Positions 1 through 44,203 of a stretch of DNA of 58,274 nucleotides are shown here, one piece after another. The notes beneath the pieces are model-generated. The model did not search any database. It was given only the letters and a program-made list of their open reading frames with translations, and had not been told where the DNA came from. Position numbers and translations under genes: made by a program. Every line of letters begins with the position of its first letter. Positions within the stretch are counted from its first letter, which is position 1. The stretch is from Candidatus Enterousia sp. (GTDB lineage: Bacteria > Pseudomonadota > Alphaproteobacteria > Rs-D84): the NCBI GenBank assembly GCA_045645725.1, contig JAZRJG010000014.1, forward strand, positions 1 to 58,274, written 5' to 3'.

Positions 1-3000
1 TTATCATGGGTTTCACAATTTGCCGACGGCACAGATTATGAATTTAAGGGCATATACGGAGGATCCGACGGCACAATCCAATACTATGACGAATACGGTT
101 CGGTGACAACAACCACCGACCTACCAGCCAACATGACTTTATATGCATTGTTTGAATTGGATGAAACAGATGACGAAGGCGAAGGTGGCGGCACGTCAAT
201 TTGTGTGGACAATGCATTGGAATCGGGGTGCGAATGTGATTCAGAGAATCAGGTGCCAGTAACAGTTGATACAAATACATACTGTGTATCAAACACAATG
301 TATGAGGCATATGAAAGATGTTACGAAGAAGCAGAAGAATGTGTTTCTGGTTTTACATGGGTTATTGACAATAATATGGTTGTAAATAGTATATGCGAAT
401 ATAAATTGGATTGTGTGCCAGGTGGCGGTAACGAAGGTGGTGATGAAGGCGGTAACGAAGGTGGTGATGATACCGGCGGCGATAATGAAGGTGGTAACGA
501 AGGTGGTGATGAAGGCGGTAACGAAGGTGGCGATAATACCGGCGGTGGTAACGAAGGTGGTGATGAAGGCGGTAACGAAGGTGGTAATACCGGCGGCGGT
601 AACGAAGGTGGTGATGAAGGCGGTAACGAAGGTGGCGATAATACCGGCGGCGGTAACGAAGGTGGTGATGAAGGCGGTAACGAAGGTGGTGATGATACCG
701 GCGGCGATAACGAAGGTGGTAATGAAGGTGGTGATGACACCGGCGGCGGTAATGAAGGTGGTAATACCGGCGGTGGTAACGAAGGTGGTAATGAAGGTGG
801 CGAAACGGGCAGCACAGAAGGGAAAGATTGCACGAATCGGGGTGGTACTTGGACCAATGGTGCGTGCGTATATGACGATTCTTTGTCGGTCTGTGGAAAT
901 GCACGCCCAATTGAAAATTGTAAGTGTTATGATGAAACAGCCGAGTTTGTCGTGATAACTGCCTATAAACTGTATCCGTTTAATTCGTCGGAACAACCAA
1001 AGAATTATTGTTATCGGCCGGCTCAATATGATCCCGATATGTTGACTGCATATGAAATGTGTATGGATGCGGCGGAAACGGCCGGCACATATTGGCAATG
1101 GATTGCCGGTGTGCAGGGTGGACAGTGTCGCTGTAAAGGAACGATGTTGGCGCCAAGTGTATCGGATGGCAAATACGTATGTACGTCGGCGGTTGCATGT
1201 CGTGAAAATATGGCCATTGATACGGATTGTCGATGTGCCACTGGCGCGGTGACGGTTGGTGATGCGCGTTATTGTTTGTCGTCGACCAATAAGACAGAAT
1301 ATGATAAATGTATGGCTGTCACGGGTACCGAATGGGATGTGTCGGATGTGTCGAACATGGTGTGCGCATGTACAAATGATAAGTTGGCGTGGAATGGCAC
1401 GAAATGCGCCCAGAAAGCATGTGATGTAAATTCCAAGAAAGATGAATGTTATTGTCCGTCGGATACGACAGAAATAACGATTGGTAATGATGTTTATTGC
1501 TATGATACCCAGACCAAGAATTCTATGCAAACCTGTACAAACGCGGAATTGAAGTGGGATGCAACAGAAACCAAGTGCGAATGCAAGGATGGTCAGTTAT
1601 GGAATGGTTCGGCATGTTTGCCGGAATGTAACGCGGGGGCATACGTTGGGTCATTTGGAACGGTGTCATTTAATGTTGAGCAAGCATCCTGTACATGTCC
1701 AGAATCTTTGGAAAAGGTGGTGTTGGAAAAGAAACATCTGACATATAGTGCGGAAGCGGCTAATAAATTCTATGTGTATGATATTACGACGGTGATTGAT
1801 GCGGTAAGTGATAAGCATACCAATTCGGGTGAAGCATATTGTATAACCAAAGATATGAAGGAAACTATATCGGGATGTACAAGTGCGACGACCTATGCGC
1901 AAAGACCGGGTGAAAGGGGTGAATTTTGTTATGACTATGTTGATGATGCGGTATGCCGTGCTTATGAGTTCAGTTCTGCGCGATTGAATGGGGGGGACTA
2001 TGAATTTATAGCGTCAGATGGAAGCAAGCAAACAACAACAATAACTCAAATGGAAACATGTTGTTTGTTCACGGGTGGTGAAACGTTAAGCATACAAAAA
2101 GATGCGGATCTGAATATTACCAGTGCCAGTTGCCTGTGTGGTGCGCCACAAAATGCGAAATCTTGTGAGTGTAGTGGCAAAGGGTATACAGAAGGTCAAG
2201 TGATATGTACGGAGGCAGATATTGTTAAGTGTGACACGGTTACAGAGCAGATCTTGGAATATGAACAAAGCAGGTTGGCGGGTAATTTGAGCGAAGATGA
2301 GATACCTTTGATTGATCCGAATAAGTATGGGCCAAATTGTAAGCAACGTAATGAAAAGGTGCTGGGTGATTGTTTGGATGGTGAAGATGCGAAGTATTGC
2401 AGTTGTAAATGGGATATGTTTGCTCCAGAAGAAACGTCAAACCGTGCATATTATTGTAAACGATATGATGGTGTGATAAGGAACTGTGGTTCTGGTTATA
2501 CGAATAATTGTTATTGTCGTGTGGGAGAAGAAATTGTTGGGTATTTGGGGACAAGACAAAAATTCTTTTGTTATAATACGCCGGCGCGTGATCCGGGTGA
2601 TGACAGAGGAGGGGATTATTATCCAGAGTTAGATATGCATGTTCCGTATTGCAGTGATATTGTATTTGATTCAAATGGCAAAAATGGTACATATAGATAT
2701 CCTAAGGAGGGTGTTGCGGTAAACAAGATTGAAAATGCGGAATATTGTGGTGATGGGGATCCTACGAAATGCAATTGTGCGGCCCAAGGGAAGTACTTGG
2801 CGGGATGTATTGTGCCATATGAAGAGATGCCAAATGCTTTGGGATATGCGTGTATGGATAGAGCGGAGTATTATGGGTATAAAGCGTATGTTTCACAAGT
2901 TGCAAAGAAAATCAAAAGTTTGTGTCCAGATGGTCCAGATTATCCGGATAGATGTGATTGTGACACCACCGGTGGTACGGAAATTGAATTTTCTGAGGCA

Positions 3001-5127
3001 TTATCGTCAGTGACAGAATATTGTACGTCGAAAGGAAAGCAAGATGCCTTGAAGGCAAAGAAGGAGGAATGTGAAAGCAGTGGTGGTGTGGCGTCTTATG
3101 TATATCAAAGTACCGACCATGTGGTTAATGATAATTCGCACATATTTGCGACGAAACAAATTACGGACGTTGAGTGTGATTGTGGGGAAGGTTTTTTGAC
3201 CGAAAAAGGTACATGTGATTTGTCGGGGTATTATATGTGTTCCGTGCCGACCAGTATCGTAAATGTTGCGGGTAACTATGGGACATGGCATACATGTCCA
3301 GATGGTTATAGTATGGATTGGGATACGTACTATTGTGTATCTGATACAGATCCTAGCGTTAAGCAATTCAGTACGATCACGGATAAATGTGGTTGCAGTT
3401 CTGGAACGACGGCTTTGGATGCGGGTGGTAATGAGGTTGTAATAACTTCTTATGATGCTGTACAATGTCAATGCGATATGACCGAGGGAGAGGTTCATAG
3501 TGCAGATATGCAGTCGTGCGTATGTCCGGCGAATATGGGACGTAAGTATTCGTCGTATGGTGCGTGTCAATGCTTGTTTGGTGATACGACCTGTCCGGCG
3601 GGTACGAATGTGTATAATGGCAATCCACATTATTGTATGCCAGAGGGTAGTAGTGACATAAGTGCTTTGGTTGCGGCATCATGTTCATGTCCGGTTGGTC
3701 AATTGGTTATGGATACGGTGGAAATACCATGGGCGTCGATGTATGGATCTAATAGCCCATTTCGGTGGTATAAAAATAGATTGTTGAATGCAGGGTGGAG
3801 AGATTGTGACGGTTATGATGATTATTATCTGTCTGGTAATTGGTATAAGGGTTCTACATATACGGATAATAAAGCTGAAGAGTATTGCTTGGCAGATGGT
3901 AATACGTTATCTGAGTGTCAAGAAGAGTATTTGAATAGTTATAAAGCCAGATGCGTCGAAATTGGCAGAACAAATTGTGATGAGGAGATAGATTGGTTAA
4001 GAGAACAAAGGGAATTATGTAAACAAAACGTAGAGGAAGGCAAAGATGTAGAGGTGGAATGTACATTTGGAGAAATATTCGCTTGGAAAGATGTCAGAGA
4101 TAGATGTATTCGTACAAAAGCGTCGGATAGTATATATGCTAATCCTTACTTGGCGATAATAGATCCGACTATATCGTTGCATGATTTCTTGGGCAGTTGT
4201 TTGGTGAATGTTTCGGAATTTCATTCGTCGTATAGCAGCGATACGTGTCCCGGAGGAGGATGGTGGGCGTTTGCAAGTGATAATCGTTCTTGTCAGGGGC
4301 CGGAACCTTTATCCCATTATGTGTATTTAAGGGATAAGGACGGCAACCATGTTAAGAATAATTTTGGTCAGCCATATGTTATGTCGGCCGGTTTGGGTGT
4401 GGTATTTGATTTCCGTACTGGAAAGTTTAAGTGTGATGCCACAAATGGTTTTGAAATACCAAAAACCACGTATATCTCAGAGAGTTATGATTCGCCCGCT
4501 ATTATGGTGGCCAATTTGTTGGAAACTGGCTTTAGCGTTAAAACTTCTTATGGTGAAAGCAGCTATGATCCAAATGGCCCAATGTATGTTAATGAATTAA
4601 CAGTAGAAAATGGAAAATTAGTGCCTTTGTCAGAGGAAGATACAAAATGGCAGGCCGGTAAAACGACGTATGGGATGTCGTATGCAGATGTTATGACGAA
4701 TTATGGGACCGCGTTCCCCGGTGATTTGCGTTGCGGGTGTACGGAAGGTACGTATTTAGATAGTACCACGGGAACATGTGTAGCGCGCTCGGTATGTGAG
4801 CAGAAGGGGTTGAGTGTGTATCCCAACGGTTTTGAAAATTATGGTGTTGGGGGCTATAGTAATGTGCACATACCTATGTGTGTGAAAGTGATTCAGTCCT
4901 GTAGCATAGAAACGGATAATATGGGTAATATAACGAAAAACATGGGTTGTCCAGAACCTGATGATGCCAACCCTTGGCAGCAGGTGGAATTGGGTGATGG
5001 GTATATGTATACGAGTGATAAGGGTGGTTATGTTGTTAGTGCGACTAATGCAAGCGGAACCACATATGTGTATTTTTATTGGCCAGAGCAATATAAAGCG
5101 ATATTGGAATCCAACGAAATATATTAA
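1..5127 (+). CDS. giant secreted cysteine-rich modular protein, 5'-partial (frame open to the left window edge)
   Basis: Frame 1 has no stop from nt 1 to the TAA at 5125-5127. The track's start at 103 is an internal GTG. About one residue in ten is Cys outside the linker in the parts I counted. Recurring CxC-(8-15)-YC-(8-15)-C modules are present. The coding strand is G+T rich and a hairpin terminator follows. Confidence 0.85.
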   Translation, partial: LSWVSQFADGTDYEFKGIYGGSDGTIQYYDEYGSVTTTTDLPANMTLYALFELDETDDEGEGGGTSICVDNALESGCECDSENQVPVTVDTNTYCVSNTMYEAYERCYEEAEECVSGFTWVIDNNMVVNSICEYKLDCVPGGGNEGGDEGGNEGGDDTGGDNEGGNEGGDEGGNEGGDNTGGGNEGGDEGGNEGGNTGGGNEGGDEGGNEGGDNTGGGNEGGDEGGNEGGDDTGGDNEGGNEGGDDTGGGNEGGNTGGGNEGGNEGGETGSTEGKDCTNRGGTWTNGACVYDDSLSVCGNARPIENCKCYDETAEFVVITAYKLYPFNSSEQPKNYCYRPAQYDPDMLTAYEMCMDAAETAGTYWQWIAGVQGGQCRCKGTMLAPSVSDGKYVCTSAVACRENMAIDTDCRCATGAVTVGDARYCLSSTNKTEYDKCMAVTGTEWDVSDVSNMVCACTNDKLAWNGTKCAQKACDVNSKKDECYCPSDTTEITIGNDVYCYDTQTKNSMQTCTNAELKWDATETKCECKDGQLWNGSACLPECNAGAYVGSFGTVSFNVEQASCTCPESLEKVVLEKKHLTYSAEAANKFYVYDITTVIDAVSDKHTNSGEAYCITKDMKETISGCTSATTYAQRPGERGEFCYDYVDDAVCRAYEFSSARLNGGDYEFIASDGSKQTTTITQMETCCLFTGGETLSIQKDADLNITSASCLCGAPQNAKSCECSGKGYTEGQVICTEADIVKCDTVTEQILEYEQSRLAGNLSEDEIPLIDPNKYGPNCKQRNEKVLGDCLDGEDAKYCSCKWDMFAPEETSNRAYYCKRYDGVIRNCGSGYTNNCYCRVGEEIVGYLGTRQKFFCYNTPARDPGDDRGGDYYPELDMHVPYCSDIVFDSNGKNGTYRYPKEGVAVNKIENAEYCGDGDPTKCNCAAQGKYLAGCIVPYEEMPNALGYACMDRAEYYGYKAYVSQVAKKIKSLCPDGPDYPDRCDCDTTGGTEIEFSEALSSVTEYCTSKGKQDALKAKKEECESSGGVASYVYQSTDHVVNDNSHIFATKQITDVECDCGEGFLTEKGTCDLSGYYMCSVPTSIVNVAGNYGTWHTCPDGYSMDWDTYYCVSDTDPSVKQFSTITDKCGCSSGTTALDAGGNEVVITSYDAVQCQCDMTEGEVHSADMQSCVCPANMGRKYSSYGACQCLFGDTTCPAGTNVYNGNPHYCMPEGSSDISALVAASCSCPVGQLVMDTVEIPWASMYGSNSPFRWYKNRLLNAGWRDCDGYDDYYLSGNWYKGSTYTDNKAEEYCLADGNTLSECQEEYLNSYKARCVEIGRTNCDEEIDWLREQRELCKQNVEEGKDVEVECTFGEIFAWKDVRDRCIRTKASDSIYANPYLAIIDPTISLHDFLGSCLVNVSEFHSSYSSDTCPGGGWWAFASDNRSCQGPEPLSHYVYLRDKDGNHVKNNFGQPYVMSAGLGVVFDFRTGKFKCDATNGFEIPKTTYISESYDSPAIMVANLLETGFSVKTSYGESSYDPNGPMYVNELTVENGKLVPLSEEDTKWQAGKTTYGMSYADVMTNYGTAFPGDLRCGCTEGTYLDSTTGTCVARSVCEQKGLSVYPNGFENYGVGGYSNVHIPMCVKVIQSCSIETDNMGNITKNMGCPEPDDANPWQQVELGDGYMYTSDKGGYVVSATNASGTTYVYFYWPEQYKAILESNEIY
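421..807 (+). repeat. in-frame nested tandem repeat (12-nt units ggtaacgaaggt/ggtgatgaaggc, higher-order ~60 nt) encoding a GGNEGGDEGGNEGGD(D/N)TGG linker
   Basis: Direct reading of near-identical 12-nt units repeated about 30 times. The translation is a pure Gly/Asn/Glu/Asp/Thr low-complexity tract. Confidence 0.95.
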
Positions 5128-5142
5128 TCGGGTATTTGCCAG

Positions 5143-5167
5143 TCACCCCGAAAGGGGTGATTTTATT
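5143..5167 (+). terminator. rho-independent terminator after the giant gene
   Basis: TCACCCC-GAAA-GGGGTGA stem-loop followed by TTTTATT. Confidence 0.7.
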
Positions 5168-5234
5168 CCGGTTGTGTTTTTGTTGTTGGGGCGGTATAAT
5201 GGTATGTGTAAAATGAATGGCTGGGGGTGACAAT

Positions 5235-5549
5235 ATGAAAAAATTGTTGGCTGTGTTGGCGGTGTTTTTATGTATGGGGGCGGCAAATGCTTATCAGGTT
5301 TTGTCGTCCAAAGAATTGGGGCGTGGAGACGCCAAAAATCAAAATGTTGTGGTAAAATGCACAACCGATACAGGTAAAATTTCAAATCAAACGTGTTCGT
5401 TGCGCCGATATGTAAAATGCGCGGGAACGGGGGAAAATAAACGATGTGCCGGTTGGTTGCCATGGCGGGATTTGCAAAATCCGTCTAAGCAATATGCCGA
5501 TTGGAAATCGGCGGCGTCCGCATGTTGTCGTGCCAAGGGATTGAGATAA
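5235..5549 (+). CDS. small secreted cysteine-rich protein (104 aa)
   Basis: ATG preceded by a GGGGGTGA ribosome-binding site. N-terminal signal peptide MKKLLAVLAVFLCMGAANA. The mature part has 7 Cys. A terminator follows. Confidence 0.7.
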   Translation: MKKLLAVLAVFLCMGAANAYQVLSSKELGRGDAKNQNVVVKCTTDTGKISNQTCSLRRYVKCAGTGENKRCAGWLPWRDLQNPSKQYADWKSAASACCRAKGLR

Positions 5550-8524: not shown

Positions 8525-8561
8525 TTTGATATGCTGTATGAATTTCCGAAATTTTATATTG

Positions 8562-8590
8562 TTGAAGTTTGTCGGATATTGGGTTATAAT
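8562..8590 (+). promoter_or_regulatory. sigma70-type promoter (TTGAAG-N17-TATAAT)
   Basis: Near-consensus hexamers with 17-nt spacing, about 210 nt upstream of the next start codon. Confidence 0.5.
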
Positions 8591-8596
8591 GTTTGT

Positions 8597-8799
8597 GTTG
8601 TGGTATTTTGCCATAATGGGGTGTAGAAGCCCGTGAAACTGGTGTCGTAATTATTACGGCAGAATCTCTCCAATCGTTGGGTTGGAGGGGTGTGAATAAT
8701 GTGCCGATAATGCACAGAATAAGCACACTATACCAGTTTATAGCTTCTAACCTCCAACCACTTGAATTTTTTCGGTGGTTTTTTGTTTATGGGGGTTGT
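8597..8799 (+). promoter_or_regulatory. long structured 5' leader with mutually exclusive stems and a terminator-like hairpin (riboswitch/attenuator-like, class unknown)
   Basis: GGTTGGAGG (8680-8688) pairs with CCTCCAACC (8751-8759). AACCAC (8756-8761) can instead pair with GTGGTT (8775-8780), which is followed by TTTT. A GGGGG ribosome-binding site and the ATG follow. Confidence 0.35.
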
Positions 8800-9249
8800 A
8801 TGCGCAAGATAATTTTTTCGCTTTATTTTATGATTGTGTCGGGGATTGCGTCGGCGGCCCAACAGTGTGTTGATTTTGGGGAATTAAGTACAGGATTGTA
8901 TATTGCAAGTAGTGATGTAGTAGATTGGACAGTGTATAATTCGGATGTGACGGTCCAGGGTATTGGTGTGTGTGTGCAGACCATTGGAAATATGGGTGAT
9001 GTTAAAGAAACTCTGAAATATGATGCTATTTTATACTGTGCTTTTTGTGATGATGATGATTTTTATAGGAGTAATAGCAATCAATATTGTTGGTGTCGTA
9101 TGTTCTCGCCGGTGGCGTCCAAATGGGTGGCGTATGGTAGTTTTGGGGATGCAGAAGAATGTTTGGATAATTGTTCTGAAGAGTGCGCGGTTGCATTGAT
9201 ATATTCGACTGCGTTTCGTTCTGCCATGTTGGGCAGTTTTGGTGGTTGA
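8800..9249 (+). CDS. small secreted cysteine-rich protein (149 aa)
   Basis: Start chosen at MRKIIFSLYFMIVSGIASAA (signal peptide) after a GGGGG ribosome-binding site. The mature region has 10 Cys, including YCWC and CLDNCSEEC. Confidence 0.65.
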   Translation: MRKIIFSLYFMIVSGIASAAQQCVDFGELSTGLYIASSDVVDWTVYNSDVTVQGIGVCVQTIGNMGDVKETLKYDAILYCAFCDDDDFYRSNSNQYCWCRMFSPVASKWVAYGSFGDAEECLDNCSEECAVALIYSTAFRSAMLGSFGG

Positions 9250-9251
9250 TA

Positions 9252-9644
9252 ATGCGATGGCTTTGTGCGATTTTGTTGACGGTATATGTGTGTGGTGCCA
9301 AAGCGGCATCGTGTCCGGCGGGATATGTTATGATTGATAATCCGTATGTGACAATATCTGATACTTGTCCGTCGGGTACGATATCGGTTGGGGTGGCGGC
9401 CGCATGTGATGGAAATTCTGTGTGTTGGGTGATGGAAAAACTGCGGTCTTTGTGTGGTGCCGGAATAAGTCGTTTGCGGGTGTCAAGTGGGGTGTCTGTG
9501 CCGTTGTATTCGGATAAAGTGACGACACCGTCGTTGAATATTCGGTATAATGGTAAAATGTGCTATGCCGATTTAGAACAAGGCAGGGCAAGTAATGCCG
9601 TTAATGTAAAACACAATGGTTTGATTTATCATACGGTGGAATAG
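9252..9644 (+). CDS. small secreted cysteine-rich protein (130 aa)
   Basis: The ATG lies 2 nt after the previous stop. Signal-like MRWLCAILLTVYVCGAKAAS. The mature part is Cys-rich (SCPAGY...TCPSG...ACDGNSVCW). Confidence 0.6.
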   Translation: MRWLCAILLTVYVCGAKAASCPAGYVMIDNPYVTISDTCPSGTISVGVAAACDGNSVCWVMEKLRSLCGAGISRLRVSSGVSVPLYSDKVTTPSLNIRYNGKMCYADLEQGRASNAVNVKHNGLIYHTVE

Positions 9645-9654
9645 GGGTATATAA

Positions 9655-9688
9655 CCCCTGAAAAATCAAAAAAGTTCTATCATTATAT
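9655..9688 (+). repeat. copy 1 of a ~35-bp promoter-like element (CCCCTGAAAAATCAAAAAAGTTCTATCATTATAT)
   Basis: Direct repeat of the element at 9875-9911. Confidence 0.7.
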
Positions 9689-9874
9689 TTAGATTTTGAT
9701 GTGTTGTTTTTTTATGATAAACTTAAATTTGAGTTTGGTTTGAAAAAAACAGTTAATTTTATGGATAGATATACGAAGAAAGTATTGTATTTAATTCCTG
9801 TTTTATTTTTGGCGGCTTGTTTTTGTGTTTTGTGATGGTGTGTTTGGGGTTGGGGATTGGGTTTTTCTGAATAT

Positions 9875-12763: not shown

Positions 12764-13861
12764 TTAGAATACGTATTTAATGTTTATGCCGCCAATCCAA
12801 CCGTTGTGTGCGCCGTCGCGACGACCGATTGTTGCAGACAGGTTCAGGTTTGATACGTTCTTTTCTAATGTAATACCGTATTCGGTATAGTTGCCAATGT
12901 TTAATTCGTTTTGTGCAACTTTGTTTATGACCGTGTTGGTGCCGTTTTCAAAGAACATAACGTGTTGAACGTTTGCGGAACCGTACCAACCGCTGCCAAT
13001 GTGTTTGATTGCGCGCAACATTGGGGTGACTTGGAATATGCCAATTGCGTCGTTGCGAATCGTGTCGCCAGATGCAGATGTGTAATTATCAGAATCTATC
13101 CATGTGTATCCGATTTGCAGGTTTGGTTGGATTGTAAATGTTGAATCCAATGCAATGTCGTATGTTGCGTTTACGGCTGCGCCTGCCCACATGTTTGTGT
13201 ATTCGTCTGTGCCGAATTTTGTGTTAACGGTGTTGTTTAATACGCCGCCGTTTAATGTTGTGTACAGGCCAAACTTGCCGAATTTGTTGCCGTTATAGAT
13301 GCCAAAAAATCCGCCGGTTTCTTCGATTTCAAATTCGCTGTTTGTTTGTGTGGCGTCGATGTATCCTGTGTACAGGCCCCATTTGGACAGACCGCCGATA
13401 AATTCCGATTGTCCGCCCGCCGCGCCAAATGTAAATACGTCTGATTTTGAATCAATGCGGTCGAATTCGTCGAATTTTACATTGTCTTTGGTGTGACGCC
13501 AATTGGTCCACAAACTGTTTAATGTGGCGTCGGTGTTGATGCTGTCGCCGCCACTGCGTCCATATGTGCCGTCGTCATTAAATTCGCCGTATAATGGTGC
13601 GGTGCCGTAAATCGCCGCGCGTCCGTATGTTGCGTTTGGGTCTTCTTTTGGCATAGGTGCGTATTTTTGTGGGCGTTTATGTGTGTTTGTTGACATAAAG
13701 CCGGCAAAAGATTGAAATGCGTTTTGGATGACGGTCTGTTGCATTGTTGCCACATTGTGTGTGGTAACAGTGTTTGTGTATAAATGTGCAGGTGCTGCAA
13801 TTGCCGATGTTGCGAAGCCCGCAATTGCGGCCGTTGTTAACAAAGTGTACAGATTTTTCAT
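12764..13861 (-). CDS. outer-membrane beta-barrel protein (autotransporter-beta/OMP-like)
   Basis: 365 aa. Signal peptide MKNLYTLLTTAAIAGFATSAIAAP. The C-terminal half has alternating aromatic/Gly beta-strand patterning and ends in ...GGINIKYVF (terminal Phe). GAGAGAGGAC ribosome-binding site. Confidence 0.75.
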   Translation of the reverse strand: MKNLYTLLTTAAIAGFATSAIAAPAHLYTNTVTTHNVATMQQTVIQNAFQSFAGFMSTNTHKRPQKYAPMPKEDPNATYGRAAIYGTAPLYGEFNDDGTYGRSGGDSINTDATLNSLWTNWRHTKDNVKFDEFDRIDSKSDVFTFGAAGGQSEFIGGLSKWGLYTGYIDATQTNSEFEIEETGGFFGIYNGNKFGKFGLYTTLNGGVLNNTVNTKFGTDEYTNMWAGAAVNATYDIALDSTFTIQPNLQIGYTWIDSDNYTSASGDTIRNDAIGIFQVTPMLRAIKHIGSGWYGSANVQHVMFFENGTNTVINKVAQNELNIGNYTEYGITLEKNVSNLNLSATIGRRDGAHNGWIGGINIKYVF

Positions 13862-15992: not shown

Positions 15993-16022
15993 TCTTTGTG
16001 TTTGATAATCATTGTTAACAAG

Positions 16023-16049
16023 GCGAACGCTGAAACGTTCGCTTTTTTT
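16023..16049 (+). terminator. rho-independent terminator after mscL
   Basis: GCGAACG-CTGAAA-CGTTCGC followed by T7. Confidence 0.8.
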
Positions 16050-16342
16050 ATTGGCTTGTGCGGGGCGGATTATGTATAGTTTTGTTTTGCGGGTTGGGGT
16101 GGGTTTGTGTCGACAAGGGCGTTTGTAGGATTTAACTTGTTGCTGGCATTTATTGTGTTGCTGTGGGATTGGTGCGTATGAGAGTGGATTTGTGTCTAAG
16201 GGGGTGTTGCTGTATATGTTGTGTGATTTTTTTGTCGTGGCTAAAAGATGGCTATGGGTGGTGGCTTGTGAAGAAAAGTGGCGGAAAACCGCGGAGTGTA
16301 GCGATGCTTCAAAGGCGCATAATGTATATTATGTATAGTTTG

Positions 16343-16740
16343 CTGTCGTAAACGTATACATAACATAACAAAACAGAGTTCTGATGTTGTTTACTGTCGT
16401 AGACGTATACATAACATAACAGAGTTCTGATGTTATTTTCTGTCGTAAGCGTATGCATAATATAACAAATTTCTGGTGTTATTTTCTGTCGTAAGCGTAT
16501 GCGTAATATAACAGAGTTCTGGCGTTGTTTACTGTCGTAAATGTATACGTAACAAAACAAATTTCTGATGTTGTTTACTGTCGTAAGCGTATGCGTAATA
16601 TAACAGAGTTCTGGCGTTGTTTACTGACGCAAGCGTATGCATAATATAACAAATTTCTGGCGTTGTTTACTGTCGTAAGCGTATGCCATGTCATAACAAG
16701 TTGCTGGTGTTGTTTTTTTGTCGTGAACGTATGTATAAAT
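16343..16740. repeat. tandem array of 8-9 copies of a 46-bp unit (first copy 51 bp, last two degenerate)
   Basis: CTGTCGTAAGCGTATGC(A/G)TAATATAACA(GAG/AAT)TTCTGG(C/T)GTT(G/A)TTT(A/T). Unit starts are at 16343, 16394, 16440, 16486, 16532, 16578, 16624, 16670 and ~16719. The units at 16486 and 16578 are identical. Confidence 0.95.
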
Positions 16741-17122
16741 GTGTGTTGTTTTGTTGCTGTGGATTTGTGTGTTGTGTAAATGTGGCGAGTTGTGGATGGT
16801 ATTTGTGTGCGTGTGTGTGATGTGCTTTTGTGTTGTTTGGTGAAAACAAATGATTAAGTTTTATGTTTTATAATATGGTTTAATGTGTTTTGGTTGAAAA
16901 AATGTAAAAAATGCCCTGCTTTGGCCGTAAAAAAAGCAAAAAATGGCGGATTTCTGCGGTTTTTGGGTGTTTTTGGTGTCGGCGGGGCGTATTTTTAGTG
17001 TTTTTTGATGGGGTGGGTGGGCGTCAATGTACTTGTTTGTTAATTTGGGGCAATGCGCCCTGTCGTATGTTGATGTGTTTGATTAACAAGTGATAATAAT
17101 TGTTTGATTGTGGTTGTAAAAT

Positions 17123-17150
17123 AAAAAAACACGCCAATTGGCGTGTTTTT
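17123..17150 (-). terminator. rho-independent (bidirectional-looking) terminator ending the minus-strand four-gene operon
   Basis: A7-CACGCC-AATT-GGCGTG-T5. Confidence 0.75.
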
Positions 17151-17189
17151 ATCTGTGACGTTGGATTTTTGCAATTTTTTTACGATATT

Positions 17190-17486
17190 TTAGTGCTTCT
17201 TTTTTATGCTGTTTGGCTGTTTTATTTGCATAGTGTCCGCATACAAATAGTAATGCCCCGCCATTGCGCATCTGGTAAAGTGTGCGCTGTCTGGTGTGGG
17301 GCTTTGTTTGGTTAATGCCACCAATGTTGTAACCAATAATACAGATGCGTAACAATAAGCAATTGCGCCGGCGATGTTAGAGTGTCTGGCTTGGCGCATG
17401 ATATTTGATTGCAATGTGTCATATAGTTCGATTTTTGACATTTTGTCGTTATGTCTTTGGTATGGTTTTATCAGTTTATTTGTCAT
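17190..17486 (-). CDS. small hypothetical membrane protein (98 aa from the ATG; the track starts at an upstream TTG at 17498)
   Basis: One strongly hydrophobic segment, NIAGAIAYCYASVLLVTTLVAL. It is the last gene of a co-directional cluster. No motif recognised. Confidence 0.5.
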   Translation of the reverse strand: MTNKLIKPYQRHNDKMSKIELYDTLQSNIMRQARHSNIAGAIAYCYASVLLVTTLVALTKQSPTPDSAHFTRCAMAGHYYLYADTMQIKQPNSIKKKH

Positions 17487-17558
17487 CGTATTGTCCAATG
17501 GATTGAAAATGGGCGCGAACTGTGATGGTTTCCCGCCCTGCTTTTGTCGTTTTTCTTT

Positions 17559-17831
17559 TTAGCGAGAATTCTGTTTGTATTTGTCGCACATTGTTGCGAT
17601 TTGTGTTCCCAGACGTTGTGCCGATTTGAATGTTGGGCATGTGTATGGGAATATTACTTGGTGTGTGCCTTCGTGGTCGATATAGCATTTGATTACTTTG
17701 ATGCCGATTGTTGGATATACCACACCGTAATCATCGCGTATTGCGGATATGCGACATGCATGTGTGCAGCCCGTGCATGTGACGGGTGATAATGTTTCTT
17801 CGGTTTTTTTTAATTTTTCTTGTGTGAACAT
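17559..17831 (-). CDS. hypothetical protein with one copy of a novel Cys-rich ~75 aa domain
   Basis: 90 aa with an AGGAG ribosome-binding site. TCTGCTHACRISAIRDDYGVVYPTIGIKV...YTCPTFKSAQRLGTQIATMCDKYK aligns with both halves of the upstream gene's product. Confidence 0.7.
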   Translation of the reverse strand: MFTQEKLKKTEETLSPVTCTGCTHACRISAIRDDYGVVYPTIGIKVIKCYIDHEGTHQVIFPYTCPTFKSAQRLGTQIATMCDKYKQNSR

Positions 17832-17840
17832 GGGGTGCTC

Positions 17841-18422
17841 CTATTTTGTGTTTTCTTTATGTTTCAGACACATTTTGCAGATTTGGGTAGCCAAGACCTG
17901 GGCTGCTTGGAATGACGTGCATGTGTGGCTAAACACGACTTCACGTTTGGTGTTGATATTCCAGTATGTTCGGATTTTTACGCCTGCGATTGTTGGATAT
18001 ATGACGCCATTTTCATGTGTTGCGCGCAAATGACATTTGTTTAAACAGCCGTCGCAATGCATGTCGGACATTTTGCCTTCGATTGTGCGTGCCAATCTGG
18101 ATTGAGAGAAACCATTGTTTTTGTCTTTTCTTTCCCATGGTTTGTATAAGACGGTGCGCATTTTGTGATGATGGTCGCACAGATCGGCAACAGATGCCGC
18201 CATTTCTGTGCCTGCTTCGTAATCTTCTGTGTCGGCGATATGTTTTGTGCCATTTGTATCAATGTATGAATAAATTGGTGTGCCGGCAATTGTGGGTACA
18301 AATACATTGTAACCTTGTTGGGCGCTTAAAGTGCAATGTTTAGGACAGCCGTCGCACACCGGTTTGAATGATGTGTTTGGTTCTTGGACTGTCGGTTTTT
18401 CCGGATCTGTTTGTGTGAACAT
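17841..18422 (-). CDS. hypothetical protein with two tandem copies of the same novel Cys-rich domain
   Basis: 193 aa. VCDGCPKHCTLSAQQGYNVFVPTIAGTPI... and HCDGCLNKCHLRATHENGVIYPTIAGVKI...HTCTSFQAAQVLATQICKMCLKHK. Confidence 0.7.
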   Translation of the reverse strand: MFTQTDPEKPTVQEPNTSFKPVCDGCPKHCTLSAQQGYNVFVPTIAGTPIYSYIDTNGTKHIADTEDYEAGTEMAASVADLCDHHHKMRTVLYKPWERKDKNNGFSQSRLARTIEGKMSDMHCDGCLNKCHLRATHENGVIYPTIAGVKIRTYWNINTKREVVFSHTCTSFQAAQVLATQICKMCLKHKENTK

Positions 18423-22133: not shown

Positions 22134-24482
22134 TTATTCCATACCTTCGGGTGGTGTGCATGCATTTTGGTCGCCTGGGGGGCAAACCTGATTTTTTGAG
22201 TCGGGTACGACGGCTTCCCATTCGCCAGCGGCATTCGGTATTGTTGCGACGCATTTTACGGATGTGCCATTGTTGCTGCGGCGGCCACCGTTTTCCCAAC
22301 ACAGACATGCGCCCCAAGATTGGGTGTCGACGCTGTCGCTGTATGTTGCGGGACACATATTTTCGTTTGTTTTTGTTGAGTCGTTTTCGTCTGTTTGGAT
22401 GTTGTAACCTTCGAGTGATGAGCCCGAATATTGACAGAAAGCGTCGGATTTATAGGTGCCGATTTTAATCCACGGGTATTCAACAAAGCGACCAGATAAA
22501 TTGGTGCATTGTGTGGTTAAGATGGACAGAATCTGATTATAAACTTCGGTTGCGACGCCAACGGGACGTAAATTGCGGTGGTACAACTCTGTTTCGTCTG
22601 CGTTCAACGTGCCGTATTTCTTTTGTGTGCCTGTTTCGTTGTCAACGGTGAATGTCAGGTCGTTTATTTTGACGTCGATGTATGCAGAATCAAATCCGCC
22701 AAATGCCTGTTCAATCATATCAGGGTCGCTGCATGCGTCAATGTTTTGTAATTGTCGGGCGCATTCTGATTTGATTGCACGGCCATTGGTGTAATCATAC
22801 AATGTAAACCAATCTGGGGCGGCGCCCGCTGTGAACAAGCCGCTGTATGGATAATAGAAATTTTCATGGTTGGTGCCACCGTATTTGTCAAAGCACTGTT
22901 TAACGACCGCACGACATGCCGTCAATGTGTCGGTGTCTTGGATTTTGTCCATGTATGCTTGGATTATATTATCGTCAAACATATTGTTGCATGATTGGAC
23001 ATAATCGGCGCACATTTGGGCGTTTAATGCCAGTGCGTCTGGTTGCAGAACGACGGTTGCGTCGCCGGTTAATTCCGCCATCGCGGACGTTATTGCGTTG
23101 TCATTGTTTATATAGCACGAAGAAACAAAGTCAAAGCAACCTTGTTTAATTTCTTGGACTTTGTCTTTTTGGGCATAGTATATATCCAGCATTGCTTTGT
23201 CCAAATATTCGGCCCATACGATGTCCGCATTTTCGACACATGTGTCCAATGCGTCCGCTGCAAATTTTTTGACCCGGTTTTCAAAGTGTTGGACAAAAGC
23301 GCGGTTGGCGGCATTTTGTGCCAATTTTTGGTCGGCGGCTTCTATGCCGGTTTGGAATTTCAGCATTTCTTCCAGTTTATAGAAATCTTTGACGCCGGCA
23401 ATAGGTGCGCCGGTTGAAATATCAATGTATTTGCCGTCGTCTAAGCATTTATGATAATTTTTTCCACATACTTGTTCGCTGACAATTGCGGATTCGACGG
23501 CGTTGATGCATGTGGTTATGTCGGACGAATTGTGTTTTTTGCGATTTTCAATGCGTGCCAAATCCAACATTGCGCCGCCTTCGCGGATAGATGCTTTCAT
23601 GTCTTTGCGGCTGTTTTCAAATGCGGTTGCGACGGTGTTACAGTCCTGCTCTATCGCCATAAGGTATGCGGTTACGGCACGTTGCAGGGATGCGTCGTTA
23701 CAATCGGTGGCGACCGCTTTGCGGCATTGTGGATATACGGCGGAATACAGGGCTTGACCATTGTATGTGCCGATAATTTGACCGGCGTCTGCCGTTCCAA
23801 ATGCGTTTGCAGTGTCGAAAGATATTTTTACACTGTTTAATTCGGAATATTTGCCGTCGACGTGACTGTCGGCACCACGTATAGAGTTCATAATGGCTTG
23901 TAATAGCGCTTTGGATGCAGATGTGTCTTTGGTTAATGCGGCTTCGCCTTCGGATGCATTGACCATTGCGCCGGCTTGGGCGGCGGACATTCCGACGACG
24001 TCCAGGTTATCTGAAAATGTGGTTAATTTGTCGCCCGCGTTTTGGATTGTGTTGCGCGTGTCCATTAAATCGTATACGCGATCACTGCAAGAACAGCGAC
24101 GATAATCGTCGCTTTTTAATGTGCAAAATTGGTCCATGCATGTGAAGTATGTGTTTTTGCACTTTTCGTATTCGGCACCTGTTTGGGTTTGTGACATATC
24201 AAAGCCGGTGTTCGTTGTGGCGCGTGCAGTTATGCGTTTTTGTGTTGTGTTATGCGTTTGGGCCGGTGTTCTTGCAATTGTTCGTTGGGCGGTACGCGCG
24301 ATGGCGGGCGCGGCCGGTTGACGTTGTGTTGCGTTGCGTGTGGTGGAATAAATTCTGCCTTGGGGTGATGTAGACGAGTTGTTTTTTGATGCGCGAGATA
24401 CCGTCATGCCATCCCGAACAGCGCCGTTCGCGACCCCCATGCACGTTAATACGTTTGCTGCAAAAATCAGAATTTTCTTCAT
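22134..24482 (-). CDS. secreted cysteine-rich protein, CMDQFC-family paralog 1 (782 aa from MKKILIF; an alternative ATG at 24503 adds 7 aa)
   Basis: Signal peptide MKKILIFAANVLTCMGVANGA, then an Arg/Ala/Thr/Gln-rich low-complexity region. The conserved core YFTCMDQFC...YRRCSCS...QDCN...CGKNYHKCLDDGKYIDISTGAPI is collinear with the 41777-44203 product. Confidence 0.8.
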   Translation of the reverse strand: MKKILIFAANVLTCMGVANGAVRDGMTVSRASKNNSSTSPQGRIYSTTRNATQRQPAAPAIARTAQRTIARTPAQTHNTTQKRITARATTNTGFDMSQTQTGAEYEKCKNTYFTCMDQFCTLKSDDYRRCSCSDRVYDLMDTRNTIQNAGDKLTTFSDNLDVVGMSAAQAGAMVNASEGEAALTKDTSASKALLQAIMNSIRGADSHVDGKYSELNSVKISFDTANAFGTADAGQIIGTYNGQALYSAVYPQCRKAVATDCNDASLQRAVTAYLMAIEQDCNTVATAFENSRKDMKASIREGGAMLDLARIENRKKHNSSDITTCINAVESAIVSEQVCGKNYHKCLDDGKYIDISTGAPIAGVKDFYKLEEMLKFQTGIEAADQKLAQNAANRAFVQHFENRVKKFAADALDTCVENADIVWAEYLDKAMLDIYYAQKDKVQEIKQGCFDFVSSCYINNDNAITSAMAELTGDATVVLQPDALALNAQMCADYVQSCNNMFDDNIIQAYMDKIQDTDTLTACRAVVKQCFDKYGGTNHENFYYPYSGLFTAGAAPDWFTLYDYTNGRAIKSECARQLQNIDACSDPDMIEQAFGGFDSAYIDVKINDLTFTVDNETGTQKKYGTLNADETELYHRNLRPVGVATEVYNQILSILTTQCTNLSGRFVEYPWIKIGTYKSDAFCQYSGSSLEGYNIQTDENDSTKTNENMCPATYSDSVDTQSWGACLCWENGGRRSNNGTSVKCVATIPNAAGEWEAVVPDSKNQVCPPGDQNACTPPEGME

Positions 24483-24585
24483 CTCTGGTTGAAATGATAT
24501 CAAATTTGGGCTTTTTTACGCAAGTGAATAATGTGGTAATAGCAATATTTTTACATGAACACTATTTTGTGGATTGTGCAGTTTT

Positions 24586-24777: not shown

Positions 24778-24847
24778 ACATACTGACGCATAAACAAAAA
24801 ACACCCCTGTGGGGTCTTTTATGTTTATGGTGGATGTGATTGGACTC
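24778..24847 (-). repeat. resident copy of the same 70-nt segment (3' end of the intact tRNA-Val gene plus terminator)
   Basis: See 24586-24656. The minus-strand hairpin ACCCC-ACA-GGGGT plus T6 directly follows the tRNA CCA end. Confidence 0.95.
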
Positions 24848-24904
24848 GAACCAACGACCTCTTCGATGTGAACGAAGCGCTCTAACCAACTGAGCTACAC
24901 ATCC
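24828..24904 (-). tRNA. tRNA-Val (anticodon CAC), CCA encoded
   Basis: Hand-folded cloverleaf: GGATGTG/CACATCC acceptor, GCTC/GAGC D stem, CTTCG-TTCACAT-CGAAG anticodon arm, GTTGG-TTCGAGT-CCAAT T arm. 77 nt. Confidence 0.9.
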
Positions 24905-24934
24905 GTATAAAAAAATCGCCATTGTGGCGAGTAT

Positions 24935-25021
24935 TGGTGGGGATAGTGGGACTTGAACCCACACGGTCGCAATGACCAAAGGATTTTAAGTCCTCAGCGT
25001 CTACCATTCCGCCATATCCCC
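24935..25021 (-). tRNA. tRNA-Leu (anticodon TAA), long variable arm, CCA encoded
   Basis: GGGGATA acceptor, GAGGA-CTTAAAA-TCCTT anticodon arm, long variable arm, GGGTTCAAGTCCC T arm. 87 nt. Confidence 0.9.
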
Positions 25022-25043
25022 GAAGACCATGTATATAAAAATT

Positions 25044-25119
25044 TGGTGGAGCTGATGGGACTCAAACCCACGACCTCTACGATGCGAACGTAGCGCTCTA
25101 TCAACTGAGCTACAACCCC
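25044..25119 (-). tRNA. tRNA-Ala (anticodon CGC), CCA encoded
   Basis: The acceptor GGGGTTG/CAGCTCC carries the G3:U70 identity pair. CTACG-TTCGCAT-CGTAG anticodon arm. 76 nt. Confidence 0.9.
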
Positions 25120-25126
25120 AAAACTC

Positions 25127-25213
25127 TGGTGGGCGTAAGAAGACTCGAACTTCCAAGGTATTGCTACCACTAGTACCTGAAACTAGCGCGTCTACCAATT
25201 CCGCCATACGCCC
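25127..25213 (-). tRNA. tRNA-Leu (anticodon CAG), long variable arm, CCA encoded
   Basis: GGGCGTA acceptor, CTAGT-TTCAGGT-ACTAG anticodon arm, long variable arm, GAAGTTCGAGTCTTC T arm. 87 nt. Confidence 0.9.
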
Positions 25214-33227: not shown

Positions 33228-33258
33228 AAAAAACATGCGCCCGTGGGCGCATGTTTTG
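33228..33258. terminator. bidirectional terminator shared by tolA (+) and rnpB (-)
   Basis: A-run, ACATGCGCCC-GTG-GGCGCATGT, then a T-run. Confidence 0.75.
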
Positions 33259-33586
33259 TAGACAGGCATATAAGCCGGGTTCTGTGCTGCCATAATTCAG
33301 TGTGTTTTGCATACCATATTATGGTAGTGAACATGATTAATCTGCATACTGCATTACTGCGGTATGTCAAGCCCTCTACCCGCCCCCATGTGGGACACAT
33401 ATCGGGGGCCTATTTGAGGTTGCTGCACGTAGAGATTGCCCGTTTCACTCGAATTTAATCGTTTCGTCACTGTTGCTCTGATCGTCGGGTCGCCCCGCCC
33501 GGTATATTAGCCGGTACGTTGTCCCATGCAGCCCGGACTTTCCTCAGGATACAAAAATATCCCGCCATGTCCCGCCTGTCGTACGG
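33256..33586 (-). ncRNA. rnpB: RNase P RNA (bacterial type A)
   Basis: The minus strand contains the universally conserved GAGGAAAGTCCGGGC (CR-I) near the 5' end and ACAGAACCCGGCTTAT (CR-V) near the 3' end. The P1 helix pairs GACAGGC with GCCTGTC. About 330 nt. Confidence 0.9.
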
Positions 33587-41776: not shown

Positions 41777-44203
41777 ATGGTAAAATGCGAAAAAGAGAGA
41801 AGCAAATTGAAACATTCTTTATATTGTTTAAGCAGTTTTTGTGCATTGATGTTGGCGGCGTTTGGTGCGGCGGTTGCTGAACCTGCGCCAAATCCACGCA
41901 GTGCGACCATGGCGGCAATGGGCGCGCGTGCAGATGGCAAATCAATTAATCGTTCGGATTCCGATACGTCGCGTAATACCGCACGTCGTGCGTCGCGCAG
42001 TGCAACCGTTAATGCAAAGCCGGTGACGGAACGTACGCATGTGCGTTCTGCGGCACCAATGGTTGATCGTCGTGAATCGACGGTGGTTCGTGCGGCATCG
42101 ACGGGTGTGGCACGTTCGGCAACGGTGGCGCGTGGTGGCAATACGGCGCGTTCTGCGGCGCCGGTGGCATCGGGTATGGCCCGTGCGGCATCAACGGCAC
42201 GTGCAACGGCGGTCTTTAATGATATTTCCAAAATTGGTGGCGGTTATGGTGCATGTCGCGATTCGTATGCCACGTGTATGGATCAATTTTGTGCGAACGC
42301 CAATGATACATATCGTCGCTGTTTTTGCAGTGCCAGATTTACCGAATTTCGTGATACAGAATATGCGTTGGATGAAGCACGTCAGTTGTTACAACAATTT
42401 GAAGATAACAGTTTGAATGCCGTTGATAAAACCGCGGCCGAGGTTAACGCAATGTACAGCGCAACCGTTGGTGAAGCGGCAATAAAAAAAGATACCAGTT
42501 TGGCGCAAAAAACATTGAATGAAATTGGTGATTTGCTGTCGGGTAAAAAGAAAGCAAGTACAATTCAGGCGCCAACAACGTCTTTGGGGACTTTGTCTTT
42601 GGATTTTTCGTCCAGTATGGATGATATTTGGGGCGGTGGTTCGGCATTTGATTCTGTCTTTGAACGCAGCAGCAGTGTGGATATGAGTGCATTAGAAGGT
42701 GCGAATCTGTACAATGCGGCGAACAAGCAATGTATGCAGGTTATCAAAGGTTCATGCGAAAATGATGCGGTTTTGAATATGGCGTCCAGTGCGTATGGCA
42801 TTATGGTATCCCAAGATTGTAATGCATATGAACGTGCGTTGGACAGAAAACGTGAAGAAGTTTTGGCGGTTGTTCGTACGGCGGAAAAGGCCCTGCGTCA
42901 AGCGCGCTTGGAAGAATATCGTGCGCATAATTCGGCCGACGTAAATGAATGTTTGTCGCGTGTGCGTGAAGCGATGTTGACCGATACCGCATGTGGTGAT
43001 AATTATTACAGATGTTTGGATTATACGGGTAAATATATCAACCTGTCCACGGGTGAACCGATTTATACACCGGAGTTGTTCCAGTTGACAGAATTGGTCA
43101 CGTTGGATGATGGCTATGTTGGTCGTGATAATGCGGTGGCACCGACCGGTGGATTTGATAAATTCTTGGACGAACGTCGTATTTATGCCGAATCGGCATT
43201 GGATTCGTGTCGTGATATTGCGGATACGGTTTGGTTTGAATTTAAACGTGCTGCAAAAATTGAAATTGAACAGGCACAAAATGAAAAGATAGAAGAAATC
43301 AAAACGTCGTGTATGGATACGGTGCGTGAATGCTATGACACGCAATCGAATCATTTGAAATCTTTTGATGATACTACGGCCCAGATGTCGGGTGGTTTGG
43401 CGGCGTATGCAGCACAGCAAATGTGTGTGGATAAATTGATGTCGTGTGCGTCTTTGTATGGTAATGGTAAATGTAATGCAACCGTGTCAAATGGTCGTGT
43501 TACGTTTGATACGACGTCCAAAGATTGTGGTATGACCGCATTGTTGGAATATGCAAATACGGTGGACAGTGTTCGTATCGCCGAAGGTTGCGTCGAAGCA
43601 ATTTCAAAATACATAACCGATACATGTACCCCAACGGGTGATGGTGATTATCCAATGAATTGTCGTACTTTGTCAAAAACGGATTTTGAAAAATCAATTA
43701 TGACACGTGTATCGTTGTATTGCCGTGAACCGGATGGCAGCAAGATTGCAGAAGACAAAACGTCTATTTCGGAGATAGGCGATGCGGTGATGCGTGATAA
43801 TATTCAAAAAATGTTCGATAATGCGGTTGCGGAAATCAGTTCGGCATTGATGGAAAAATGTGCGGAAAACAACGGTCTGTGGTATGAAACGGGTGATGAT
43901 GGCTCTTTGGCTGCGGATGTTATGGCAATGAATAAAGAATCTGTGTATTATTCAACTGTGTTTGGTCGTTCGGATGATACGGCGGAACGTTATGGTCGCT
44001 GTGCGGCAAACGATGAACGCAATGCGTGTTTGGCCATGAATGATATGGGTGATGGCATTGAATATACTTCGTTTGATACATCGCGTAATGTTTGTGTCTT
44101 CAATGATGCGTGGTATGAATATACGTGTGCAAATGTATTAAATGGCGAATGGTCGGATAATACTTGCTATTGGGATTCCCGTAATAAATCGGAAAATGAA
44201 TAA
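41777..44203 (+). CDS. secreted cysteine-rich protein, CMDQFC-family paralog 2 (808 aa)
   Basis: Signal-like LYCLSSFCALMLAAFGAAVA, then degenerate (V/A)R(S/A)A(S/T) repeats. The core YATCMDQFC...YRRCFCS...QDCN...CGDNYYRCLDYTGKYINLSTGEPI is collinear with the 22134-24482 product. Confidence 0.8.
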   Translation: MVKCEKERSKLKHSLYCLSSFCALMLAAFGAAVAEPAPNPRSATMAAMGARADGKSINRSDSDTSRNTARRASRSATVNAKPVTERTHVRSAAPMVDRRESTVVRAASTGVARSATVARGGNTARSAAPVASGMARAASTARATAVFNDISKIGGGYGACRDSYATCMDQFCANANDTYRRCFCSARFTEFRDTEYALDEARQLLQQFEDNSLNAVDKTAAEVNAMYSATVGEAAIKKDTSLAQKTLNEIGDLLSGKKKASTIQAPTTSLGTLSLDFSSSMDDIWGGGSAFDSVFERSSSVDMSALEGANLYNAANKQCMQVIKGSCENDAVLNMASSAYGIMVSQDCNAYERALDRKREEVLAVVRTAEKALRQARLEEYRAHNSADVNECLSRVREAMLTDTACGDNYYRCLDYTGKYINLSTGEPIYTPELFQLTELVTLDDGYVGRDNAVAPTGGFDKFLDERRIYAESALDSCRDIADTVWFEFKRAAKIEIEQAQNEKIEEIKTSCMDTVRECYDTQSNHLKSFDDTTAQMSGGLAAYAAQQMCVDKLMSCASLYGNGKCNATVSNGRVTFDTTSKDCGMTALLEYANTVDSVRIAEGCVEAISKYITDTCTPTGDGDYPMNCRTLSKTDFEKSIMTRVSLYCREPDGSKIAEDKTSISEIGDAVMRDNIQKMFDNAVAEISSALMEKCAENNGLWYETGDDGSLAADVMAMNKESVYYSTVFGRSDDTAERYGRCAANDERNACLAMNDMGDGIEYTSFDTSRNVCVFNDAWYEYTCANVLNGEWSDNTCYWDSRNKSENE

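Follow-up and report, generated by a model that had tools for sequence, protein, structure and literature searches.

What kind of protein is encoded by the giant cysteine-rich gene at the edge of a contig from Candidatus Enterousia, and what could it do for a bacterium with so small a genome? The gene fills the first 5,127 positions, on the forward strand, of a stretch of 58,274 nucleotides (nt) that was analysed as a whole and is referred to below as the window (Candidatus Enterousia sp., GenBank assembly GCA_045645725.1, contig JAZRJG010000014.1, positions 1 to 58,274). Enterousia and the wider Rs-D84 order are uncultured and common in ruminant, horse, chicken and human guts; Enterousia genomes are under 1 Mb, lack respiratory chains and most biosynthesis, and dependence on a partner is thought likely (PMC12306168). 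No account of these giant Cys-rich proteins was found in the Enterousia and Rs-D84 literature. The gene is real, its locus is mosaic and hypervariable within the species, and we hold with moderate confidence that it encodes a recombination-shuffled, disulfide-scaffolded, exported surface protein, adhesin-like or serving partner recognition, of a probably partner-dependent gut bacterium.

The reading frame (frame 1) is open from nt 1 to a TAA codon at 5125-5127 and comprises 1708 codons; the figure of 1674 codons given in an earlier note on this DNA refers to the same open reading frame (ORF) counted from its first GTG, at nt 103. That note described a very large, Cys-rich gene, open from nt 1 and truncated by the edge of the window, and this description holds, with 106 Cys in the 1708 residues. 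Its estimate of one Cys in every ten residues applies to the densest blocks only (at most 11% per 100 residues), whereas the overall content is 6.2%, or 6.75% if an acidic Gly-rich linker is excluded. The four example strings that it quoted are all found in the protein. The objection that a frameshift-ridden assembly could have simulated the long frame was not borne out, the frame being unbroken here and intact over the same span in an independent assembly (locus L095). The gene is taken to be real because the L095 copy is intact with all 98 aligned Cys conserved, and because a terminator-like hairpin follows 14 nt 3' of the stop codon (5141-5167, + strand; 9-bp GC-rich stem, GAAA loop and U-rich tail; -18.2 kcal/mol).

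A word-indexed homology search with amino acids (aa) 270-1708 returned nothing at E<=1e-3, likely because contig ends almost always cut through copies of this gene, which are hence missing from protein sets. An exhaustive HMMER (phmmer) search of 1.84 billion cluster representatives gave one relative only (E 2.5e-38), a protein of 2179 aa from the Ca. Enterousia metagenome-assembled genome (MAG) GCA_045635825.1, here called P0121. The two proteins are collinear over four BLASTP segments, window residues 1-54, 503-735, 1004-1269 and 1375-1702 matching P0121 residues 806-856, 1371-1581, 1630-1813 and 1829-2154, respectively, and the two best of these have E values of 2e-36 and 7e-19. When P0121 served as query, 53 proteins of 1208-2651 aa were listed (P0121-P0173), all from MAGs of Alphaproteobacteria or Proteobacteria and carrying the NCBI labels "hypothetical protein" or "InlB B-repeat-containing protein". 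Beyond a short junction segment at its start the window protein is matched by P0121 and P0122 only; for 50 of the 53 proteins listed no relation to its distal part is seen, and P0127 matches the 51-aa junction segment alone. Judged by its sequence, the giant protein thus belongs with P0121 and P0122. Residues 1-990 of P0121, P0122 and P0123, which are from another species, are 98-99% identical, after which the three diverge. The 5' end of the gene lies beyond the window, and because the match begins at P0121 residue 806 and is collinear, about 800 N-terminal residues are probably missing.

Common to the listed proteins are only a signal peptide, a low-complexity, basic stretch rich in R, S, T and A, and an N-domain of about 480 aa (P0121 179-660), their distal parts being mutually unrelated. 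The signal peptide is present in nearly all full-length members (for example MKRLAIFIGGLLVLPAFA, followed by EV), and the N-domain is 38-75% identical among members with at least 14 invariant Cys (alignment A2). In P0121 and P0127 the N-domain lies 150-380 aa upstream of the junction segment, and collinearity with these two proteins suggests that the giant protein carries it as well. An AlphaFold2 model of the domain (from the window protein at 41777-44203, with 37 sequences) is all-alpha, with very long helices at a predicted local distance difference test score (pLDDT) of 70-88 and 57 overall; a Foldseek search of the Protein Data Bank (PDB) with this model gave no match below E = 1, and the N-domain alignment gave no PDB sequence match.

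Two further proteins of the window carry the N-domain of P0121, which supports the earlier suggestion that the giant protein is one of a set of Cys-rich secreted proteins scattered across the window. One has 808 aa and 31 Cys, with signal peptide, basic stretch and N-domain (41777-44203, + strand; BLASTP to the P0121 N-domain, E 9e-29), and the other has 789 aa and 29 Cys (22134-24503, - strand; E 3e-26; included in alignment A2). No direct paralogue of the giant protein was found when it was compared by BLAST with the other proteins of the window, and the link between them runs only through the N-domain of P0121. Directly 3' of the 808-aa paralogue is a gene (44216-45535, + strand) for a secreted protein of 439 aa with 19 Cys, a poly-Ser/Thr/Pro tail and no Pfam match, and an unannotated 610-aa gene likewise lies 3' of the family member P0154; a partner gene beside N-domain proteins is a possibility.

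The behaviour of the locus within the species was followed in nine same-species loci (L091-L099, one contig being retrieved twice), obtained from one metagenome scan and two exact-protein look-ups; an exact look-up of the YgjP protein of the window returned no record. The flanking genes of these contigs are 96-99% identical to the window at the nucleotide level, and the position of the giant gene holds at least four different contents. Allele A, represented by the window and L095, is 91.5% identical in amino acids over 1442 residues. Allele B (L091, L094 and L096, which are the same, plus L099) is a mosaic that has only nt 32-181 (85% identity) and nt 698-1698 (91%) in common with the window; its linker is short, its C-terminal domain is present twice, and elsewhere it is closer to P0121. 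The last 450 residues of allele C (L092 and L093) are without any match, yet they are Cys-rich and free of CxxC, and sequence homologous to the window begins again 8 nt ahead of the stop codon. In content D (L097 and L098) the giant gene is replaced by two genes, coding for secreted proteins of 194 and 672 aa that are poor in Cys. At L097 these occupy 178-2802; the 672-aa protein has a long charged, coiled-coil-like middle, and both are unlike the family and the other window proteins.

The junctions between common and divergent sequence can be placed on a map of the gene. All of its segments are on the + strand. The junction segment (aa 1-54, 1-162) matches P0121 806-856 with 41% identity and P0127 872-920 with 47% identity, and is conserved with other family members 3' of their N-domain. 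After a first copy of a seven-Cys module (aa 66-138, 196-414) comes the acidic Gly-rich linker (aa 139-276, 415-828) of the GGNEGGDEGG type, which is coded by in-frame tandem repeats; Tandem Repeats Finder placed the arrays at nt 424-803, every period being a multiple of 3. The linker varies in length and is a site of recombination: it measures only about 37 aa in allele B, and the homology of that allele begins inside the window linker, at nt 698. The cassette in common (698-1698) has about 93% amino acid identity over aa 272-555 and then falls abruptly to about 25%. It includes copies 2 and 3 of the seven-Cys module, in tandem (aa 399-472 and 473-543, 1195-1629). The segment aa 503-735 (1507-2205), 31% identical to P0121 1371-1581, holds the sole CC pair and is followed by a degenerate region (aa 736-1269, 2206-3807) with 10 CxC motifs and no alignable repeats, in which aa 1004-1269 show weak similarity to P0121 1630-1813. 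A C-terminal domain of about 330 aa (aa 1375-1702, 4123-5106; two copies in L091), with the motifs FDxxTGKFKCD and YGTAFPxDLxCxC, is the best conserved part (E 2e-36 to P0121 1829-2154), and conservation with P0121 is absent from the extreme C-terminus. On its right side the variable island ends at nt 5119-5155, homology with the other alleles resuming at nt 5119, 5153 or 5155. The left edge of the common cassette is thus inside the linker-coding repeats, and the right edge of the island is at the stop codon and terminator.

The contigs themselves tend to start inside the gene. The window and the allele-B contigs L091, L094 and L096 have starting points no more than about 30 nt apart, and that of L095 is in the linker; the shared starting points suggest an assembly-breaking repeat just upstream, which would explain the near-absence of the gene from protein databases. 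When three alleles were used as tblastn queries, no silent donor cassettes were found in the 58-kb window. Synteny with the nearest public MAG contigs (RNase H 91% identical) revealed no orthologue, the site being occupied by different genes. In more distant Enterousia the site beside rnhA holds a BspA-like leucine-rich-repeat (LRR) surface protein instead: two contigs (L081 10798-12347 and L082 10798-12416) have there a 76-aa secreted protein and a secreted protein of 433 or 456 aa, the latter with repeated "...FxxCSGLTGxIPxGLF..." units that look like BspA-type LRRs. It would seem that the rnhA-adjacent site is a hot spot for genes of surface proteins in general. A little further along, 1.3 kb between YgjP and hisS (8537-9858) is missing from L091, L094 and L097 and mostly present in L095. 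This stretch, in which two Cys-rich ORFs without a Pfam match overlap (8677-9249 and 9183-9644), has the look of a second variable insertion, of small size, close to the giant gene.

Differences between strains at one site are typical of surface proteins that bind a partner or host. A conserved N-terminus joined to a hypervariable C-terminus, with sharp strain replacements ending exactly at the stop codon, could also be the mark of a polymorphic toxin (such as CdiA-CT, Rhs or MafB) or secreted effector, in which a conserved N-terminal delivery part carries exchangeable, strain-specific C-terminal toxic or effector domains against competitors or the partner cell, and in which the recombination breakpoint likewise lies at the gene end. 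However, no toxin, two-partner secretion (TPS), Rhs, VENN or other delivery domain was found in any allele, and the variable part consists of more than 1400 aa of Cys modules rather than a short C-terminal tip. The gene next downstream encodes a small secreted protein of 110 aa with seven Cys and a signal peptide visible in the sequence (5217-5549, + strand). Its amino acid sequence is identical beside alleles A, B and D (exact-sequence look-up), with dN = 0 against L095, and beside allele C the gene lies at the same position inside a flank that is 98% identical in nucleotides; it does not co-vary with the alleles, as a cognate immunity gene should. Moreover, content D exchanges the whole gene for unrelated secreted proteins. 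We regard a toxin as unlikely.

The replacement in content D also bears on the possibility that the giant protein is a structural envelope component, i.e. a disulfide-cross-linked coat or S-layer-like protein for which the chlamydial Cys-rich envelope proteins would be an analogue, and whose variation would reflect phage or immune pressure and not ligand binding. The very many conserved Cys, the presence of several paralogues in 58 kb of a genome smaller than 1 Mb, and a kind of variation typical of exposed envelope components would all agree with such a role. On the other hand, strains with content D have no such gene at the site, an absence that one would not expect if the protein were structural and essential; the long flexible linker speaks for projection away from the cell rather than for a lattice; and no similarity to known envelope or S-layer proteins was found. 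A structural coat accordingly seems improbable to us.

The spacing of the Cys is non-random. The window protein contains 21 CxC motifs against 7.1+-2.5 in composition-preserving shuffles, none of 5000 shuffles reaching 21, no CxxC against 7.1 expected, and one CC against 7.2 expected; Tyr directly precedes Cys 15 times against 6.9 expected. The same CxC-rich and CxxC-free pattern is found in P0121, L091 and L095, and CxxC is absent from all relatives. The earlier note had spoken of dozens of modules of about 40 aa. Recurrent CxC is indeed a feature of the protein, but segment-wise BLAST and iterated hidden Markov model (HMM) searches detected only the three alignable repeats mapped above (here aa 67-137, 399-472 and 473-543), with a unit of about 65 aa and seven Cys (C-x9-CxC-x12-[YW]C-x11-C-x7-W-x9-CxC). 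Only five of the 21 CxC motifs fit CxC-x(9-17)-[YFW]C, and the others stand in idiosyncratic contexts. A regular array was rejected, as the iterated HMM of the 65-aa module found just these three copies in the window protein. Outside the window protein, P0127 has three copies of the module, and P0121 and P0122 have one apiece.

The earlier statement that the protein matches no named adhesin, RTX, cadherin or autotransporter family agrees with searches of Pfam, NCBIfam, PHROGs and PDB sequences. Pfam gave nothing at E<=1 except one 12-bit match far below threshold, NCBIfam and PHROGs gave no meaningful match, and neither did the PDB when it was searched by sequence and by profile with the whole protein, the seven-Cys module or the C-terminal domain. 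No C-terminal beta-barrel translocator (PF03797) was found on the giant polypeptide. For RTX there was no PF00353 match, the GGNEGGDEGG linker misfits GGxGxD, and the Cys content is 6.2%. By eye, aa 1-54 had been taken for half a Listeria-Bacteroides repeat (Flg_new, PF09479 / TIGR02543), a candidate that Pfam and NCBIfam did not support; the repeat is present in some other family members, and an HMM built from their Flg_new segments matched neither aa 1-54 nor any other part of the window protein.

The earlier note had also likened the protein to eukaryotic extracellular disulfide-knot arrays, and one may ask if it is a horizontally acquired array of the epidermal growth factor (EGF) or ephrin-receptor type that mimics host extracellular matrix. 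Small tandem modules of extracellular type with CxC, a Gly-aromatic hairpin and a further Cys do look EGF-like, and one of the 21 CxC motifs, at aa 1059, fits PROSITE EGF_2. A few family members have weak matches to cEGF, EGF_MSP1 or Ephrin_rec_like, only P0132 passing the PF07699 cut-off, and allele B has a cEGF match of 14.9 bits against a cut-off of 26.6. The resemblance proved superficial, however. Of the PROSITE EGF signatures (PS00022/PS01186), EGF_1 has no match in the window protein, and in Pfam no EGF-type family matches it at E<=1, let alone at the gathering score. The unit of about 65 aa with seven Cys differs from the EGF unit of about 40 aa with six, hhalign of the seven-Cys module profile with human EGF gave a probability of 0.5%, and a PDB profile search was empty at E<=10. 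The exhaustive search found no eukaryotic relative, the sole relative being bacterial, and the GC content of the gene is like that of the rest of the window. Such an origin is quite unlikely.

Selection could be assessed within allele A. Between the window and L095 the giant gene has a nonsynonymous rate (dN) of 0.043, a synonymous rate (dS) of 0.057 and a dN/dS of 0.75. For the flanking genes (RNase H, transketolase, YgjP and the 110-aa protein) dN/dS is 0-0.18 at a similar dS of 0.036-0.085. All 98 Cys are conserved in the 1442-aa alignment while 8.4% of the other residues are changed, which has a probability of about 2e-4 if Cys were unconstrained. Since every Cys is kept and the rest changes quickly, the Cys appear to form a fixed scaffold, with the intervening sequence free or driven to change. 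Decay or loss of function of the gene, or misassembly of a repeat-rich region, might be read from this dN/dS, from assemblies that break within the gene and from allele B ending inside its second C-terminal domain, but any of these is very improbable in view of a frame that stays open over 1708 codons in the window and over 1456-1579 in independent assemblies, of the Cys conserved despite change elsewhere, and of collinear distant homologues and a terminator after the stop.

For the surface-recognition protein that we favour, the following mechanism may be envisaged. The window would hold the distal two thirds, roughly, of a very large Sec-exported protein whose conserved N-terminal base (signal peptide, basic stretch and the helical, Cys-stapled domain of about 480 aa) would anchor it at the cell. 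The acidic Gly-rich linker could act as a flexible spacer and, together with a chain of small disulfide modules, project the variable distal part outward, ending in the 330-aa GKFKCD/GTAFP domain; this distal part may bind the surface of a partner, a host or a particle. The Cys would be held as a scaffold as the residues between them change quickly, and recombination would swap whole cassettes, the breakpoints falling within the repeats that code for the linker and at the stop codon and terminator. Through such exchange, strains of one species would come to show different binding or antigenic surfaces.

Export, surface location, disulfide formation and an adhesive or binding function are thus what we infer for the giant protein, export being suggested by the signal peptides of its homologues. 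Several observations weigh against this interpretation. The N-terminus, with the putative signal peptide and anchor, lies beyond the window; a 29-mer taken from the start of the gene gave no exact match among metagenome contigs, and a second metagenome scan yielded a contig that begins at the same point of the gene, so that no N-terminus was recovered. No adhesin domain was recognised in the protein, and an AlphaFold2 model of aa 509-1708 from a three-sequence alignment was unusable (pLDDT 27.5). No secretion genes adjoin the giant gene and no outer-membrane route was identified; no Dsb-type gene turned up among the scanned ORFs of the window, which are a subset of all its ORFs. A dN/dS of 0.75, being below 1, fits relaxed constraint as well as diversifying selection. 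Finally, the oxidation of about 100 Cys is unexplained in a lineage without respiratory chains (PMC12306168).

Seen against its own family, the giant protein resembles P0121-P0173 in the collinear distal part (P0121 and P0122), the CxC-rich, CxxC-free pattern, the seven-Cys module and mosaic variation within a species; it differs in that the family-defining N-domain would lie beyond the window and in a distal part unlike that of 50 of the 53 members. Among genome-reduced, host-dependent bacteria, variable surface adhesins or antigens are exemplified by MgpB/P110 of Mycoplasma with its MgPar cassettes, Msp2 of Anaplasma and the Sca proteins of Rickettsia. These, too, are big recombining surface proteins that take a large share of a tiny genome, but they have no similarity to the giant protein in sequence or domains, no silent cassettes were seen in the 58-kb window, and the Sca proteins are autotransporters whereas the giant protein has no beta-barrel. 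Cys-rich, highly variable surface coats are also known from gut-dwelling or host-associated eukaryotes, namely the variant-specific surface proteins (VSPs) of Giardia and the ciliate antigens. The giant protein is likewise Cys-rich and variable; in contrast to the VSPs, which are built on CxxC, it has none, and no homology to these coats was found. Variable modular surface proteins are therefore nothing new in reduced-genome symbionts, but the domains found here are undescribed, and the replacement of cassettes within one species is striking.

The window as a whole comes from the chromosome of a diderm bacterium and carries housekeeping genes for transketolase, HisRS, LeuRS, SecA, DnaE, RuvB, TolQ and a peptide chain release factor (PCRF/RF-1 domains), as well as RNase P RNA (33255-33582, - strand) and five tRNAs. 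SecA is 97% identical to that of a Candidatus Enterousia MAG and 83-92% identical to those of about 80 other Enterousia, Rs-D84 or Alphaproteobacteria MAGs from ruminant and other guts. Four of the tRNAs form a cluster (24828-25213, - strand; Val-CAC, Leu-TAA, Ala-CGC and Leu-CAG) that adjoins the N-domain paralogue at 22134-24503. The GC skew is positive in every 2-kb bin (0.07-0.37), the cumulative skew climbs monotonically and the + strand holds most genes; all of the window seems to belong to a single replichore of strong skew.

A few other features of the window deserve mention. A gene at 12764-13861 (- strand), also kept in the same-species contig L094, encodes 365 aa with a signal peptide, an autotransporter beta-domain (PF03797, E 1e-7), hardly any passenger and no Cys. 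The stretch of about 1.8 kb at 15993-17840 contains neither a tRNA nor an Rfam family, and its ORFs do not exceed 102 aa, which is unusual in a genome reported to be 81-94% coding; it could be a gene remnant or an undescribed RNA. It is followed by an internally duplicated ORF of 193 aa (17841-18422, - strand) without a Pfam match, each half of which has CDGCxxxC...PTIAG motifs that look like zinc-ribbon-like CxxC pairs. Two tandem paralogues (51741-52970 and 53002-54279, + strand; 409 and 425 aa) are near-identical over their first 40 residues or so (MEKKLVSFSLAD...), have no Pfam match and contain 15 and 6 Cys, respectively.

What the finding means for Enterousia depends on the role of the protein. 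If it were only a fast-evolving envelope antigen, it would be one more variable surface protein, of moderate interest. More tentatively, and with rather less confidence than in the interpretation given above, we suggest that Ca. Enterousia has lineage-specific giant surface proteins with undescribed folds (the helical Cys-stapled N-domain, the seven-Cys module and the GKFKCD/GTAFP domain), whose strain-shuffled distal cassettes may be an apparatus for the recognition of partner or host and whose 100 or so Cys per molecule may be oxidised by an unconventional anaerobic route. Three sizeable sequence families are added that have no relative in Pfam, among PDB sequences or, for the N-domain, by Foldseek, and they pose the problem of disulfide formation on such a scale in an anaerobe that has no respiratory chain. 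With more than 0.5% of the genome devoted to it, every Cys kept and whole cassettes swapped between strains of one species, the locus would be a prime candidate for a molecule of partner dependence, and it may offer a concrete handle for finding the partner of Enterousia.

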